Positions 4,564-11,963 of a DNA stretch of 64,000 bases are shown one piece after another (position 1 is the first letter of the stretch; every line of letters starts with the position of its first letter). A program made the position numbers and the translations under genes. Below the pieces are notes generated by a model, which saw nothing but the letters and a program-made list of their open reading frames with translations, was not told where the DNA came from and made no database searches. The stretch is taken from contig JAEOSU010000070.1 of the NCBI GenBank assembly GCA_016840165.1, forward strand, positions 64,001 to 128,000, read 5' to 3'. Source of the stretch: Promethearchaeota archaeon (GTDB taxonomy: Archaea > Asgardarchaeota > Lokiarchaeia > Sigyniarchaeales > SOKP01).

Positions 4564-7500
4564 TTAGGTTTCAAAATAAAGCGATCTTCCACAATTTGGA
4601 CAGAAACTCTTTGGAGTACCAATATCATATCCACAATAAGGACAATAAAATCCGGATCTATACCCTTGAGAGTCAGCGGGTGTAGAATCATAAGACGCGT
4701 TCTCTATAGGGATTGTGTGGTAATCTTGTGAATAGTAATCCGATGGTTCCTGAGGTGCTTGTGATCTTCTTGATTTAAGTAGATATACAATCAATATTAT
4801 TGAACCTGTAGCTACTATCAAACCTATTATAAGTATTATTAGAAGAAGTTCGAAGGGTATTGAAGCCCTTATTGACAAAGCAATCCAAAATTCTTGAGAA
4901 CCTCCCTCACTATCAATTAGCGTTATTATCAATATTGCCAGGTAGCCCTCACCTGTTGCGGTATTATAGTTAGTAGCAGAAGTGATTTCTTTTGTCCCGA
5001 TAATTGAACCATACGCAATTGTGAAGGGTACGATGAATGTTCCTTGATGAGTATCAGTTAAAGGTTCATAACTCAATTCTTTAAGAGGGAATAATTGGGG
5101 ATATACTATGTTAAGAAATCCATCATCCGTCGCAGAAGCTATAAATAAATTAACTGAAACCCTCATAGAGGAGCCATCGACATCTTCATAGTCCACATCA
5201 CTAGATGTAACCGTAAAATCTAAATTATCACCTTGAGAAACTGGAATAATTAAAGTAGATTCCCCCTCATATGTATCATCAAAAGCATATGTATCTTGTC
5301 CTGCGATGGTAATATATGAACTGGATTCAATGAATGAAGGATCATTATTTCTCACCTCAAACGCATAACGTGGGGAGTATGGGTTGGTATAATTTGATAT
5401 TCCATCCTTCGGAAAGACATAATATATTGCAATCCCTGCAGGATCAGAAATAGAAGGATCGTAGTTATATCGATATAGTGTAGCAGAATAACTCAATGGA
5501 AATGTTTTATTTATAGTTTGTTTAGTATTATAGAAAGAATAGGAATAGATAGACATGTAAGCATTTACACTATATGAGGAACTATCTAAATCAACTCGAA
5601 GTTGAGTAAAATCTCCTGATTCTCTAGTTACAGGACTCTTTGATACTGCTAAAGAATTTATTATAGGTATAGATGTAGGATTGAAGTATAATAGCTTAGA
5701 AGTTTTTTGATAAGTCTTAGAACCGAAAGTGAAATTAACTATGATATCATAGGGTTTATAATCGGTACTTGAAAGAGAATAAGTGGAATTGTAGGCGATA
5801 CCGTTTTCAAGAGAAATTGTTTCTATGGATTCTGAAAATCCAGAATTACTAATGGTTATACTCAGATTAGTATTTAACACACTCGAAGCAATAGGAGTTC
5901 CTAAAGAAAGATCTTTTACATATACACTTATGTTAAATTGAGAATTTGAAGTCCTTTCTGAATTTAAAACCACTTGGATGGAAACATCATCATTAGAGAA
6001 AAAATAATCCATTAGATTTCGAGCTAAATTACTATGATCAAGTTGATAACTTGATGAACTATATAATTCACTTATCCAATGTAGATCACCAAATGCCACT
6101 AATTTCCCTCCAGATGTTGTTTCATTATATGTTGCAGCTACGGTTTTATCGTTAAGTGTAGCAATCGATTCTGAACCTGAGCCAACATTAAAGGTATTTC
6201 CATAATACCATTCAAATTTCTCCACACCATCAAATATTAATGGTGAATTTAGTTCAATAACACTCTGGGAATTGATACTAGCTCCTACTCCAAACCAATT
6301 CTCTGAATATTCATTTTCTTGATTGATTGTAATATCAGAACCTAAAACTGAAAATAATTCATTAATGTTATCAAGGCATAAATCTTGATATCGTGTCCCC
6401 AAAAATAAGATATTCCCACCATTATCGAAATAATCCTTAATATTGTTCATCTCATCAGTAGTATATGGTAATATAGGATTTTGTAATAAAATTAAATCAT
6501 ACTGTGCTAAGCGTTCCTCGGTTAGAAGGGAGTTATTATAATTCGCATCATAATAAGGAGTCCAATATTCGGCACTATAATCGAAAGAGATATTTAAATT
6601 AGTCATATCCTTCATGAAATCATAGAAGTCCATCTGATAAAATGAAGTCTCTGGAATCCAATCATTTAGGCCATGAAAAGACTCCATTAAAACCTTATAT
6701 TCAGGAAACTTAATATCTATCGTTATGTTGATTGAATCATACTCAACTATGCCATCAGTAAGATTTAACTCAAAATTTCGTACTCCAGGTCGAGCATCCT
6801 GTTCAATTTCTATATCTAAGGTTACAAATTTTACATTCTCTTCAGAAAAGGTAAGAGCAGTATTGTCTAGTTTTAATTTTAATCCGTCAACCTTATCTGG
6901 TATATTTATATTGTAGCTATTCGCTCTTCCTGAAATAACTGTGATATTAAAGGATTGCTTATCACCAGGGAAATGGAGTAAATCAAAGGGTTGGGGTGGA
7001 ATAACATCTGGAAAGAATCGTGCTGTATCGTTTATATCTGAAGATAAAGATTCCATAAATTCTAATGATGCTGACACATTAATTAAGCCAGCCCCAAACT
7101 TTAAAGTATCATCATCTTCATAATTAGATAATGGTTGGGCTCCGTCTAATAAAGCTATTCGTGCTGTTTCAGGAGTAATAGAAGGATATGCTTCTTTCAG
7201 AATCGCTAATGCTCCTGCGACTACGGGACATGACATACTAGTTCCGCTTAAAGGAATATAATCTCCATCACCACTGAAGTCAAAATAATCTCCAATATAT
7301 CGCTTGCGATCAGAAAGAGCGGAATTAGGTGCTTCTGCAGCAATTATATTAACACCAGGTGCAACAACATCTGGATATCCTAAATATGTCAAAGTTGGGC
7401 CCCAACTTGTAAAAGATGCAAGATTATTATTAATATCTGTAGCTCCCACTGAGATTACATCATTACCAGAAGCAGGGCTTCCTCCTGTAAAATAATCTGG

Positions 7501-8532
7501 ACCTTCATTTCCAGCAGAAGAGACCAATATAACTCCATAATTATTTGCCACACTTGAGATTGCCAAAGTCATCGGATCATTAAATTCTGGCAAGCCTCCC
7601 CCAAAGCTCATGGAAATTATGTCTGCTCCCGCAGTTAATACAGCCCATTCAATCGCATCGATGATATCAGTATCATTTAAACCTTCGAAATTGCCAGCCC
7701 TTGCATTAATTAATGAAACTCCAGGTGCGATACCCCTATATTTACCACCAGAAGAGATACCGCTTCCTCCAATGATACCAGCCGCATGGGTACCGTGACC
7801 ATAGTCATCATTTGAATCTAATAAATCTCCGGTAACAAAACTTTGATTTGCGATTATATTTAAATCAGGGTGATCGTATATACCAGTATCTACCACAGCA
7901 ACTTTGACTCCAGTGCCATCAAAAGCTAGATCTTCAGCACCTATTGCAGAAATCCACCAATTGGAAAAATAATTGTAATCAAGGCTACTTGTAGTCGGAG
8001 ACTCTTCTGTGTATTCAGGATTCTCATAAAACTGAGACTTATATATTTTAGTTAATCCCTCAACATCTCTTAGAGCTTCTTGCTTTGAAATTAACTCTGC
8101 AGAATTACAAATTAAGGAAACACCAGAGATAATATCATAATTGTGTATGAGTTCATAGTCCTCTAAGAGATTATCAATTTTAGTAATTCGATCTGATTTA
8201 GAAACCTCCTCTTTGAATAGCATAATCACTTTAACTTTTTCTGCTTCCGATTTGTATTTCAATGAATAGTTTAAAAGAAATTCGGTAAGAGGTGAGTCAA
8301 AAATATTGTCTTGACTGATATTGTCAAGGCTAGATTCTGCGATTGAATTATCTTCTCTTAATGAAGAAATGAGAGTCAAATCGTCGTTATTCAGATTTAT
8401 AGCTGAATCAAAGCTCTTAGTATCACGTAAACCATAACTATATACTATAAATGGAAGATTAACTAAGTTGAATAGAACAAAAGTTAAGACTAATACTTTT
8501 TTGAATATTTTGAAATGTTTCATGGTTATCAA
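4564..8532 (-). CDS. Membrane-anchored S8 subtilase with prodomain, Site-1-protease-like C-terminal ectodomain, TM helix and cytoplasmic zinc ribbon
   Basis: Signal peptide; VDTG (Asp), HGTHAAG (His), SAGN (oxyanion Asn), GTSMS (Ser); TM LLIILIIGLIVATGSIILIVYLL; CPYC..CPNC tail. True start may be the ATG at codon 4. Confidence 0.9.
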   Translation of the reverse strand: MITMKHFKIFKKVLVLTFVLFNLVNLPFIVYSYGLRDTKSFDSAINLNNDDLTLISSLREDNSIAESSLDNISQDNIFDSPLTEFLLNYSLKYKSEAEKVKVIMLFKEEVSKSDRITKIDNLLEDYELIHNYDIISGVSLICNSAELISKQEALRDVEGLTKIYKSQFYENPEYTEESPTTSSLDYNYFSNWWISAIGAEDLAFDGTGVKVAVVDTGIYDHPDLNIIANQSFVTGDLLDSNDDYGHGTHAAGIIGGSGISSGGKYRGIAPGVSLINARAGNFEGLNDTDIIDAIEWAVLTAGADIISMSFGGGLPEFNDPMTLAISSVANNYGVILVSSAGNEGPDYFTGGSPASGNDVISVGATDINNNLASFTSWGPTLTYLGYPDVVAPGVNIIAAEAPNSALSDRKRYIGDYFDFSGDGDYIPLSGTSMSCPVVAGALAILKEAYPSITPETARIALLDGAQPLSNYEDDDTLKFGAGLINVSASLEFMESLSSDINDTARFFPDVIPPQPFDLLHFPGDKQSFNITVISGRANSYNINIPDKVDGLKLKLDNTALTFSEENVKFVTLDIEIEQDARPGVRNFELNLTDGIVEYDSINITIDIKFPEYKVLMESFHGLNDWIPETSFYQMDFYDFMKDMTNLNISFDYSAEYWTPYYDANYNNSLLTEERLAQYDLILLQNPILPYTTDEMNNIKDYFDNGGNILFLGTRYQDLCLDNINELFSVLGSDITINQENEYSENWFGVGASINSQSVIELNSPLIFDGVEKFEWYYGNTFNVGSGSESIATLNDKTVAATYNETTSGGKLVAFGDLHWISELYSSSSYQLDHSNLARNLMDYFFSNDDVSIQVVLNSERTSNSQFNISVYVKDLSLGTPIASSVLNTNLSITISNSGFSESIETISLENGIAYNSTYSLSSTDYKPYDIIVNFTFGSKTYQKTSKLLYFNPTSIPIINSLAVSKSPVTRESGDFTQLRVDLDSSSYSVNAYMSIYSYSFYNTKQTINKTFPLSYSATLYRYNYDPSISDPAGIAIYYVFPKDGISNYTNPYSPRYAFEVRNNDPSFIESSSYITIAGQDTYAFDDTYEGESTLIIPVSQGDNLDFTVTSSDVDYEDVDGSSMRVSVNLFIASATDDGFLNIVYPQLFPLKELSYEPLTDTHQGTFIVPFTIAYGSIIGTKEITSATNYNTATGEGYLAILIITLIDSEGGSQEFWIALSIRASIPFELLLIILIIGLIVATGSIILIVYLLKSRRSQAPQEPSDYYSQDYHTIPIENASYDSTPADSQGYRSGFYCPYCGYDIGTPKSFCPNCGRSLYFET

Positions 8533-8769: not shown

Positions 8770-9002
8770 CTCTATCTTTTTGTTAATTCATCAAAAAGAG
8801 TATTTTTAAGGTCTTTAGCGCTTAAAATTTTAGAAAATCCTCTAATTTTAATAAAAGCAATTAATTATATACAAAACCATAGAATAAAAAAAAGTAACTC
8901 TCCTAAATCAAGTAAAATTGGTTGTTTTTAAACTCTTTAAGATTTAATTAATTGCATTTCACGATTAATAAAGATTTAAGCCTCGACTTAATTTTTATTC
9001 TT

Positions 9003-9575
9003 ATGAAGAGAAATAGGCAATTTCTGAAAATAATAATTGTCATTTTTCTCTCAGTTCTTTATGTGCTTGCGATTATCTTCTCATGGAACTATTATCCTTC
9101 ATTGAAGTTATGGAGATCGATAGATTGGGTACTATTAAATGGGTTTTTGGAGATTAGCCTCTTTAGAATAATTCATTTGATCATCGGGCTACCGATTTTC
9201 ATCTATAGTTTTATAAATGTTATTGAAATCGTAATTATTAATCAAAAGGCTCAATTAAGAAAAAATTTCCCTAGCTATCTTTTAAAAGAGGGTTTTTATA
9301 GTAAAATAAGGCATCCTATGTATACTATGATAATATTGATTCAATTCAGTTTGTTCTTTTCTTTATGTTCTTTATTAGGAATATTTTTTGGATTATTATT
9401 TACATTATTATTCATGTTATTCGGGTTATACGAAGAGAAATATCAACTTTTGCCAATACTGGGTAAGGAATATAAAGAATATTCAAAAAAAGTAAAAGTA
9501 AGATTTTTTCCTTTCCCTCTAAAGATACTTTTACTTCTTTTATATTTATTAATATTTCTCGGTATTTTTTTGTAA
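9003..9575 (+). CDS. ICMT/PEMT-family membrane methyltransferase
   Basis: GFYSKIRHPMY and EE..L...G..Y..Y...V..RF motifs; ATG at 9003 preferred over TTG at 8952. Confidence 0.8.
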   Translation: MKRNRQFLKIIIVIFLSVLYVLAIIFSWNYYPSLKLWRSIDWVLLNGFLEISLFRIIHLIIGLPIFIYSFINVIEIVIINQKAQLRKNFPSYLLKEGFYSKIRHPMYTMIILIQFSLFFSLCSLLGIFFGLLFTLLFMLFGLYEEKYQLLPILGKEYKEYSKKVKVRFFPFPLKILLLLLYLLIFLGIFL

Positions 9576-9686: not shown

Positions 9687-11963
9687 TTGCACATTAGACG
9701 CTTTAAACTTACTAAAATTAGAATAAAGGATTTCACACCGATTATTTTAGTAATGCTATTGCTTTTTGTATCAATAGCATGTGCAAATATGCTTATTCCC
9801 AGTTATGCTTCAGTCCAGTTGGAATTTCTTGTCCCAGAAGCATTATTAGCGATCCCAGATGCTTTTTTTGTATTAGTTAGTGCGTTTTTTGCATTAATCT
9901 GGGGCTATTACACGGATCGTGTTGATAGATCCAAATTAATTATGGCTGGAGCATTTTCATGGACGATTGGGATGCTACTAACCGCTTTTTCTATAAATTA
10001 TGAAATGCTCATCATTTCAAGGATGCTTTCAGGGGCAGGACTTGGTTGTGTCTTACCAGTTGGATATTCAATTATCTCCGATTCTATTCCTCCTGATGAA
10101 CGATCAGGATGGTTTGGTACGCTAGCGATCCTTAGTTCTGTTTCAAATGGTATCGGACAAGCGTTATCATCCTTTTTAGGACCAATATTGACTTGGCGCT
10201 TCCCCTTTTTTTTACTTTCAGTAATAAGTATTGTAATTGTTTTTATCCTATTTTTTGTTAAAATACCACAGCGAGGTGCGAGAGAAGAGGAATTGATAGA
10301 ATTAGCCCAAATGGATTTAGAATATCAATACACGATTTCAAAAAAAGATTTATCAAGTATCGTTAAAAAAAAAACTAATAGGTACTTAATAATTCAAAGC
10401 TTCTTTTCGATTATTCCTGGTACTATTACTATATTTTTTCTTACTTCAATGCTAAATATTTATTACTTTAATGAATTGCCAATAGAAATACGATTACAAA
10501 CAGCAACGATCTTCGCAGGTTTATTAGGAGTCGGCTATATATTGGGAAATTCAATTCTCTCCTATCTCGGAGATATTTTATACAGAAAAAATAAAAAAAA
10601 TCGCACAAGATTAGCCGCAATATGCTTAATACTCTCTGTACCTTTTTATGTTATAACTCTATTATTAATCAGTCCTATACAAATAGCCAATTTAGATATT
10701 TCCTATCCCACAGGACCAATAGAAACCTCGGAAATAGCTAGATATATGTTTCTAACGATTGGAGAAATTTTTTCTAAATATCCAAATTATATTTACTATT
10801 TAATTTTTGGTTTGATTGGTACAATCTTTAGTGCAGGACCTGTAGCAAATAGAAATGCAGTGATGATCGATATAAATTTACCAGAGCATAGAGGCACCTC
10901 TGTCTCATTTTTGAACTTATCAGAGCAGGTAGGTAAAGGATTAACCCTCTTAATCTCCTATTTTTTAATTACTTTTCTAGGAAGTATTTTTCAGATGATG
11001 CTCTTTTCTACTTTATTCTGGATTCCAGCAATCGTTATGTGGATCCTCGCTACACGAACAGTTGGAAAAGATTTAAATGTTAAATCCATGATTTTATCTG
11101 AAAGAAAGCAAATTAGTTTATTAGATTACATTTTCGAATTAGAAATCCAAATGGACAGAGGAATTCAAAAAATACACGATGCACGATATTATATTTTTTC
11201 TGACTCTAAGAAATTTGATGCTTTATTATCGGATGCAATCAAAATTTTCAATTACTGCGAAAGAGAAGGAGAAAATCGAAGTATTACGAACATTGGAGAA
11301 AAATGTCGAAAATTGAATGTAAGAGCTAAATCCATTAAACAGATGGCGAATCAGATATTTAAAATATTGAAAAATGAGGACTTATCGGCAAAGGAAAGAG
11401 ACATTTTAAGTGAGGATTTGCGACAAATTGATTTAATGATTGCGGAAGGGAAAAAAAGTACTTTTGGAGAGCTTCAAATCTATTATGAAGATGCTTATCT
11501 AAAGATTATTGAAGCACGGCTCCTACGGAAAAATGATTTATTAAAATGTATGTCAAAAATTATTGATGCAATTAAAATTTATGAGAGAGTTAAAAATCTT
11601 TTAAATGAGAGGTTAGAAGTAATAAATGATACTTCTGACTTACCTCAAGAAGATTTAGTGGCATATGAAAAAGAGAAAAAGCTATATCATAAGGCTTCAG
11701 AATCATTGAAGGCAACAATCAAATTAAAAGAAGAATTTAAGGGAATTTTTAAAAAACTTGAAGAAAAAGGCATTATGAAAGCAGATTTAATGAAAATCTC
11801 AGAATTAACCAATGAATATGATGTAAATCTGTCAGATATCATATTAGAAACATTTGGACAGGATAAAGAAACAAAAAACGCGATTCTTAAAATAATAAAA
11901 GAGATAGATATCGTTTTTAATAAATATGATGATTGGAAAGAAGTAGAGTTAAATGTTTTTTAA
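9687..11963 (+). CDS. MFS transporter (Spinster-like) fused to a ~290-aa C-terminal helical soluble domain
   Basis: WGYYTDRVDRSK motif A, SRMLSGAG, ISD..P..ER, WRFPF; about 12 TM followed by a charged helical tail. Confidence 0.8.
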   Translation: MHIRRFKLTKIRIKDFTPIILVMLLLFVSIACANMLIPSYASVQLEFLVPEALLAIPDAFFVLVSAFFALIWGYYTDRVDRSKLIMAGAFSWTIGMLLTAFSINYEMLIISRMLSGAGLGCVLPVGYSIISDSIPPDERSGWFGTLAILSSVSNGIGQALSSFLGPILTWRFPFFLLSVISIVIVFILFFVKIPQRGAREEELIELAQMDLEYQYTISKKDLSSIVKKKTNRYLIIQSFFSIIPGTITIFFLTSMLNIYYFNELPIEIRLQTATIFAGLLGVGYILGNSILSYLGDILYRKNKKNRTRLAAICLILSVPFYVITLLLISPIQIANLDISYPTGPIETSEIARYMFLTIGEIFSKYPNYIYYLIFGLIGTIFSAGPVANRNAVMIDINLPEHRGTSVSFLNLSEQVGKGLTLLISYFLITFLGSIFQMMLFSTLFWIPAIVMWILATRTVGKDLNVKSMILSERKQISLLDYIFELEIQMDRGIQKIHDARYYIFSDSKKFDALLSDAIKIFNYCEREGENRSITNIGEKCRKLNVRAKSIKQMANQIFKILKNEDLSAKERDILSEDLRQIDLMIAEGKKSTFGELQIYYEDAYLKIIEARLLRKNDLLKCMSKIIDAIKIYERVKNLLNERLEVINDTSDLPQEDLVAYEKEKKLYHKASESLKATIKLKEEFKGIFKKLEEKGIMKADLMKISELTNEYDVNLSDIILETFGQDKETKNAILKIIKEIDIVFNKYDDWKEVELNVF

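Follow-up and report, generated by a model that had tools for sequence, protein, structure and literature searches.

The window, a 64,000-nucleotide stretch of a Promethearchaeota archaeon genome (assembly GCA_016840165.1, contig JAEOSU010000070.1, positions 64,001 to 128,000), carries at its positions 4564-8532, on the minus strand, a single open reading frame (ORF) for a predicted membrane-anchored protease of the subtilisin type, 1322 amino acids long when read from a TTG codon. An identical database entry has 1319 residues, so the true start is probably the ATG at position 8523 rather than the TTG; the residue numbers used here follow the 1322-residue reading. The gene stands alone, convergent with rpiA downstream and divergent from the genes upstream. 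A look-up of RNA data for the gene returned none. We place its product, as a new form from archaea, with the S1P (MBTPS1/SKI-1) type of subtilase, the eukaryotic site-1 protease that controls sterol and lipid synthesis, the endoplasmic reticulum stress response and lysosome biogenesis. The build that the two enzymes share hints at an archaeal root for S1P, although descent is not proved by the trees.

An earlier reading of this DNA, made from the sequence only, had described a signal peptide, a prodomain, the catalytic Asp, His and Ser of peptidase family S8, a long ectodomain, one transmembrane segment and a cytoplasmic tail, and hydropathy, Pfam searches and alignments recovered each of these (Table 1). 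At the N terminus, a lysine-rich stretch precedes a hydrophobic segment at residues 12-32. The prodomain gives a weak match to Pfam Tk-SP_N-pro and contains a conserved I-x-K-I-Y strand. An S1P-like K-I-Y-K motif at the prodomain end was considered and dropped: it is kept in the near subfamily only and sits in the last I9 strand. Pfam Peptidase_S8 (PF00082) spans residues 206-468, and the Asp-His-Ser order and the oxyanion Asn lie within a subtilisin fold (subtilisin folds, Z ~27), as in family S8. Since all 50 diverse relatives compared keep D215, H246, N342 and S432, the enzyme looks active.

Behind the catalytic domain, a template-free AlphaFold (AF2) model of residues 190-900 (the head model; predicted local distance difference test (pLDDT) 71.8, predicted TM score 0.71) folds residues 504-607 into an immunoglobulin (Ig)-like sandwich and residues 612-845 into an alpha/beta domain. 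The latter is a GIFT domain by Pfam PF23355 (IFT52_GIFT, 30.8 bits against a cut-off of 27.2), which 55 of 61 family members match. When a profile of these 61 diverse relatives was run with HMMER, IFT52 chains were the strongest sequence match in the PDB (E 5e-17), and human S1P was matched at E 2e-5. A further AF2 model, of residues 856-1245, resolves three tandem Ig/fibronectin type III (FN3)-like sandwiches followed by a helix; in the PDB this stalk finds generic Ig-stalk matches only. The single transmembrane segment is followed by KSRRS and a 70-residue tail that ends in a zinc ribbon. Its four Cys (1297, 1300, 1311 and 1314) are invariant in relatives, and Pfam Zn_Ribbon_1 scores 22.5 bits in the protease and above its cut-off in relatives, which bears out the zinc-ribbon tail that had been proposed. 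With 164 D+E to 63 K+R, the ectodomain is strongly acidic. N-x-S/T sequons, counted as a possible mark of glycosylation, are not enriched in it (18 observed, 15.7 +/- 3.5 in shuffles).

Table 1. Features of the protease gene, in positions of the window
Feature	Residues	Position	Strand	Basis
Whole ORF	1-1322	4564..8532	-	1322 aa from TTG, stop codon included; likely start ATG 8523, giving 1319 aa
Predicted signal peptide	~4-33	8434..8523	-	K-rich n-region, then hydrophobic core; hydropathy 12-32
Prodomain, I9 / Tk-SP ProN-like	~34-190	7963..8433	-	Solved ProN-Tk-SP chain 3afg_A aligns from residue 92
Peptidase S8 catalytic domain	191-495	7048..7962	-	Pfam E 3e-51; D215, H246, oxyanion N342, S432
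Ig-like beta-sandwich at the position of the S1P P-like domain	496-608	6709..7047	-	AF2 model strands 315-418; alignment to S1P
GIFT domain	609-855	5968..6708	-	Pfam IFT52_GIFT above cut-off; IFT52 and S1P matches; hhalign
Stalk, three tandem Ig/FN3-like beta-sandwich domains	856-1222	4867..5967	-	AF2, pLDDT 94.4
Single transmembrane helix	~1226-1252	4777..4857	-	Hydropathy; helix 372-389 of stalk model
Predicted cytoplasmic tail, starting KSRRS	1253-1322	4567..4776	-	Topology from the positive-inside rule
Zinc ribbon, CPYCG-x10-CPNCG	1296-1318	4579..4647	-	Pfam Zn_Ribbon_1; four invariant Cys

The order of these domains is that of S1P. Cryo-EM structures of the human enzyme show a signal peptide, an A/B prodomain, the S8 domain, a P-like sandwich, a GIFT domain (617-998), a transmembrane helix and a tail (PMC11231238, PMC12067269). 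S1P is alone among the proprotein convertases in having a GIFT domain, which braces the oxyanion-hole loops, lines the substrate groove and narrows substrate access (PMC11231238, PMC12067269). When the head model was compared with solved proteins by Foldseek and VIA-align, human S1P was both the best match and the sole one over the full length. Two human S1P chains led the Foldseek list (E 1e-29 and 1e-28 over 760-770 columns), followed by Vpr over only 466 columns. VIA-align superposed residues 190-846 of the protease with 190-872 of human S1P (Z 33.5, 561 residues, root-mean-square deviation 6.2 Å); S8-only chains reached Z ~27, and Tk-SP, a Thermococcus protease, aligned over S8 and the beta-jelly roll only. 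In the ESM Atlas, clusters of eukaryotic S1P came first whether ranked by fold (TM score 0.62) or by the features of a language model (0.94 for residues 190-900); the 0.85 obtained by features for residues 496-860 alone is a lead only. The protein thus has the S8 domain, Ig-like sandwich, GIFT domain, single transmembrane segment and tail that make up the S1P architecture (AF2 with Foldseek and VIA-align against 8UW8/9CSD, and hydropathy). The claim that it holds the full architecture of S1P stands for the domain order and the three-dimensional arrangement; that wording passes over the three-domain stalk and the zinc ribbon, which have not been described for S1P (PMC11231238).

By sequence, too, the likeness to S1P goes beyond chance. 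A 40-residue stretch of human S1P from the HMMER alignment served as a probe that retrieved vertebrate S1P, and together with the sheep S8 domain it retrieved S1P of insects, cnidarians, nematodes, plants and unnamed eukaryotes. BLASTP against sheep S1P returned one high-scoring segment pair that starts in the S8 domain, spans the sandwich and reaches the first strand of the GIFT domain (201-623 with 204-632, 469 columns, 27% identity, E 2e-24). In hhalign, an alignment of the Asgard P-like and GIFT domains matched vertebrate S1P at 97.5% (E 8.6e-12, 272 columns, S1P 504-852), and the GIFT domain alone matched that of S1P at 97.7% (E 2e-12); judged by these profile alignments, the two GIFT domains are clearly homologous. 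The six short blocks that the sequence-only reading had aligned with S1P all pair with real S1P sequence. For human S1P, HMMER set RVLWDQYHNL, TNFRDM, SQYG...FSDWY, NELLS and GGRIVLYGD against the archaeal blocks named for them, and BLASTP against sheep S1P paired the sixth, FNITVISG with VNVTILNG. One of the blocks, although real, had been given with one wrong residue, as RILWDQYHNL instead of RVLWDQYHNL. Over the 40-residue block, 10 of 40 positions are identical between the protease and human S1P.

Proteins of this kind occur throughout the Asgard archaea. Among the best 120 of 230 relatives, nearly all are ~1320 residues long and the named ones all belong to the Loki, Thor, Hod, Hermod or Heimdall lineages, while more distant named members come from Baldr, Ran, Odin and Hel and from the cultured Lokiarchaeum ossiferum. 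When 1.8 billion representative proteins were searched exhaustively with a profile, all matches with an S8 domain shared the S8 plus GIFT architecture, and all named S8 plus GIFT proteins were from Asgard. A profile of the P-like and GIFT domains found matches in 197 of 201 sampled Asgard genomes and in all 85 high-quality ones (at E <= 1e-10, with GIFT-only paralogues included). More than 50% identity is kept across Asgard classes, the cytoplasmic zinc ribbon included. The family falls into length classes of 810-818 residues (short basic tail, no stalk), 960-1055 residues (transmembrane helix and basic tail, much like S1P), 1220-1380 residues (stalk and zinc ribbon), to which the protease studied here belongs, and 1415-1480 residues. 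Pfam MBTPS1_4th (PF23090), a eukaryote-derived model, has matches in 21 of the 201 Asgard genomes and in 0 of 14 control genomes; in 13 of the 201, an orthologue scores above the model's cut-off. Of 20 such matches that were fetched, 19 fall in the S8-fused gene rather than in one of the further GIFT genes that the genome carries.

Besides a single S8-GIFT gene, the genome from which the window derives has GIFT-only genes, at least five of them. These encode no protease and lie on contigs C37 (450 residues), C15 (750), C10 (321), C30 (393) and C4 (261). The sole other S8 match of this genome (C30:182088-183269) is an ORF of 1622 residues, in which a large insert interrupts the S8 domain; it forms a very long branch in the S8 tree described below.

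Based on this domain organization, we lean towards reading the protein as an active, outward-facing, type-I membrane-anchored serine endoprotease of the subtilisin kind, with an S1P-style head and a role in limited proteolysis. It would be synthesized as a zymogen whose I9-type prodomain is most likely removed autocatalytically, as elsewhere in the family. The catalytic domain would pack against the Ig-like sandwich and the GIFT domain, in the order and rough arrangement of S1P. If the GIFT domain works as its S1P counterpart does, it probably supports the loops of the active site and limits the access of substrates. The three Ig-like domains would lift this head away from the membrane, and the conserved zinc ribbon probably couples the protease to a cytoplasmic partner. 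The most likely job of such an enzyme, and the one we prefer, would be limited proteolysis of surface or membrane proteins.

Several results weigh against this reading and the kinship with S1P on which it draws. Activity, substrates and topology were inferred computationally. The P-like domain alone gave no significant profile match to S1P (E 0.09), Pfam MBTPS1_3rd (PF23094) and MBTPS1_4th did not match the protease gene at E <= 1, and PF23094 was matched by 0 of the 61 family members. In a tree of S8 domains (51 rows, LG+G4, ultrafast bootstrap/SH-aLRT support, with plasmid-borne S8 proteins as the only outgroups), the S1P clade (100/100) was sister to an S8 protein from a Nostoc plasmid (84/93), apart from the Asgard clade. 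The S8 domain of S1P scored 40-117 bits against Asgard S8-GIFT proteins (71 for the protease studied), no closer than to subtilisins; in the PDB, Bacillus subtilisins gave it 104 bits and Tk-SP 80. Streptomyces plasmid S8 proteins are 35% identical to S1P and 41% to the protease, whereas the S1P-protease pair stands at 27%. An S1P GIFT profile scored 112-120 against pooled non-S8 GIFT domains and 82 against the S8-fused GIFT domains of Asgard. The GIFT trees that favour kinship contain vertebrate S1P rows only, have flagged long branches and show support below the strict threshold. Finally, an 839-residue archaeal S8 cluster of the ESM Atlas aligns over model residues 1-624 (TM score 0.58), and the three-domain head may, to judge from this model-based match, extend beyond Asgard and eukaryotes. 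The cluster has 202 members; the phylum is known for 5, most commonly Methanobacteriota.

The Nostoc protein is an unannotated S8 ORF of 595 residues without a GIFT domain, on plasmid pn1 of Nostoc sp. UHCC 0926 (NZ_CP117772.1 708416-710434). The long Streptomyces plasmid S8 proteins (ORFs of 1217-1290 residues) were checked for P-like and GIFT domains and had neither.

Whether S1P and the Asgard enzymes descend from the same fused ancestor was tested domain by domain. In the S8 tree, the Asgard proteins fell together with S8 domains of Streptomyces and other bacteria, without resolution among them. Forcing Asgard and S1P into one S8 clade cost 6.3 log-likelihood units and was not rejected (approximately unbiased test, p 0.25), so the S8 domain neither supports nor rejects the grouping. 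In the GIFT trees (59 and 83 rows), by contrast, S1P grouped with the S8-fused Asgard GIFT domains and three unnamed non-S8 domains (94/52 and 94/89), leaving outside IFT52, the Asgard GIFT-only paralogues and multi-GIFT proteins named Thermoprotei or Zixibacteria. One protein that grouped with S1P in the first of these trees, P0248, proved to be a generic GIFT protein and not an S1P fragment. A true eukaryotic IFT52 grouped with two GIFT-only genes of the window's own genome (C10 and C4; 98/88), a placement that may point to a tie between Asgard and IFT52 but was flagged as a meeting of long branches. Common descent is favoured by the architecture, the arrangement and the GIFT tree, and not by the S8 tree and the profile scores. 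The Asgard ancestry of S1P that the sequence-only reading had put forward keeps its Asgard host, its near-universal family and its homologous GIFT domain, and loses the grouping of S1P with Asgard in the S8 tree.

The alternative that survives best is that Asgard archaea and early eukaryotes separately fused a subtilase of the pyrolysin/Tk-SP type, S8 with a beta-sandwich, to a GIFT domain, so that the two enzymes share parts without a shared fused ancestor. Its materials were at hand: the S8 and beta-sandwich pair pre-exists in Tk-SP, and stand-alone GIFT genes are plentiful in Asgard, with GIFT domains also found in IFT52 and OST48. The placement of S1P apart from the Asgard clade, the GIFT profile scores and the P-like domain without sequence signal fit it as well. 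What speaks against separate fusions is that the same three domains and a transmembrane helix follow in the same order, with near-collinear numbering and one rigid-body superposition over 561 residues, that the GIFT trees join S1P to the S8-fused Asgard domains, that a common S8 clade is not rejected and that the named S8 plus GIFT proteins are all from Asgard. On balance, we hold separate fusion to be possible but somewhat improbable, and give about even chances that S1P and the Asgard enzyme inherited the body plan of S8, sandwich, GIFT and transmembrane helix from an Asgard-type ancestor.

A different view of function would make the protein a nutritional surface protease that turns extracellular protein into peptides for a peptide-fermenting archaeon, its extra domains being anchor and spacer only. 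Peptides and amino acids do sustain cultured Asgard archaea (Prometheoarchaeum), the closest similarities of the catalytic domain and prodomain are to degradative enzymes, namely Tk-SP and the subtilisins, and a strongly acidic ectodomain is a trait of many secreted proteases. However, the genome holds one S8-GIFT gene only, with the split ORF on C30 as its sole other S8 match, conservation of this degree across Asgard classes, zinc ribbon included, is unusual for scavenging proteases, and the GIFT domain of S1P narrows substrate access. We therefore regard a nutritional role as unlikely and keep limited proteolysis as the preferred reading.

The sequence-only reading had gone further and seen here an ancestor of the S1P/S2P signalling route, in which the protease would cleave membrane-tethered regulators first, an M50 site-2 protease would cleave them next and the zinc-ribbon tail would take part in signalling. 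The S1P-like head, the membrane anchoring, M50 peptidases at three loci of the genome and a zinc ribbon conserved over the long-form subfamily would suit such a route, which we nonetheless judge very unlikely: no basic motif of the R-x-x-L type is conserved across the family at the prodomain end, and other Asgard subfamilies have short basic tails in place of the zinc ribbon. The M50 genes that such a route would need are there, yet they are also present in all 14 control genomes, so their presence is uninformative on a link to S2P. Across 21 loci, no M50 gene, regulator or functional partner was found as a conserved neighbour; the recurrent neighbours are housekeeping genes only (ABCE1, LysRS, TIM and ARMT1, with rpiA, purE and thiolase in near kin). 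Because M50 is universal and no neighbour of this kind is conserved, a role in regulated intramembrane proteolysis is unsupported, and so is the claim of an ancestral signalling route. It is likewise highly improbable that the Asgard S8-GIFT proteases are direct ancestors of S1P that already perform cleavage of the site-1 type on proteins tethered to the membrane, while their zinc-ribbon tail passes on or receives a signal in the cytoplasm; if this were true, regulated two-step proteolysis of membrane-bound regulators would predate eukaryotes.

In eight loci, which come from distant Asgard families, the protease gene and an ABCE1/RLI gene are no more than 10 kb apart; this looks like old synteny of housekeeping genes rather than a functional link. 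In the window itself, the plus-strand ORF at 8952-9575, divergent from the protease gene, encodes a polytopic membrane protein of 207 residues that has no Pfam match and carries an RHPMY motif, which we take to recall isoprenylcysteine/phospholipid methyltransferases. Farther along the same strand, 9687-11963 encodes a major facilitator superfamily transporter of 758 residues (Pfam MFS_1, residues 23-327) with a long, charged and apparently helical C-terminal extension. On the other side of the protease gene, the plus-strand ORF at 1220-1840 encodes a TPR-like protein with a terminal CxxC-x12-CxxC zinc ribbon, a tail of the same kind as that of the protease.

A survey of S8 peptidases proposed a eukaryotic origin for S1P (PMC6713707). 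In the literature that we searched, we found neither a paper that ties S1P or MBTPS1 to Asgard archaea nor a description of the Asgard S8-GIFT protease family. A near-universal Asgard protease with the body plan of S1P would add an enzyme of membrane proteolysis to the eukaryotic signature proteins with archaeal roots, and the orthologue in the cultured L. ossiferum (WP_371801978) makes a tractable test possible.

Among known systems, three bear comparison. The GIFT domain at residues 609-855 is held in common with IFT52 (PDB 5FMS, 5FMR, 8BD7) and with the GldG / ABC_transp_aux / DUF4350 proteins, in which no protease is attached to it. For the prodomain and S8 domain, the closest solved relative by sequence is the pyrolysin-type Tk-SP of Thermococcus kodakarensis (PDB 3AFG, 9UES; 165 bits, rising to 325 with the family profile), which likewise has a beta-sandwich behind S8 (aligned over model residues 1-406). 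However, Tk-SP is a secreted degradative enzyme and lacks the GIFT domain, stalk, transmembrane helix and zinc ribbon. S1P (MBTPS1/SKI-1; SBT6.1 in plants; PDB 8UW8, 8UWC, 9CSD) differs in other respects. Neither a three-Ig stalk nor a zinc-ribbon tail has been described for it (PMC11231238), and ~370 residues of the protease (856-1222) have no counterpart in the S1P structures matched; the S1P GIFT domain, in turn, has long insertions relative to that of the protease, and S1P has SPRING as an activating partner, a Golgi setting and R-x-x-L-type cleavage, after R-x-(hydrophobic)-(L/K/T), with autoprocessing at sites of this kind, none of them in evidence for the Asgard enzyme. What the two have in common is the succession of signal peptide, prodomain of ~185 residues, S8 domain, sandwich, GIFT domain, transmembrane helix and tail, with catalytic residues that are nearly collinear, D215, H246, N342 and S432 in the protease against D218, H249, N338 and S414 in S1P.

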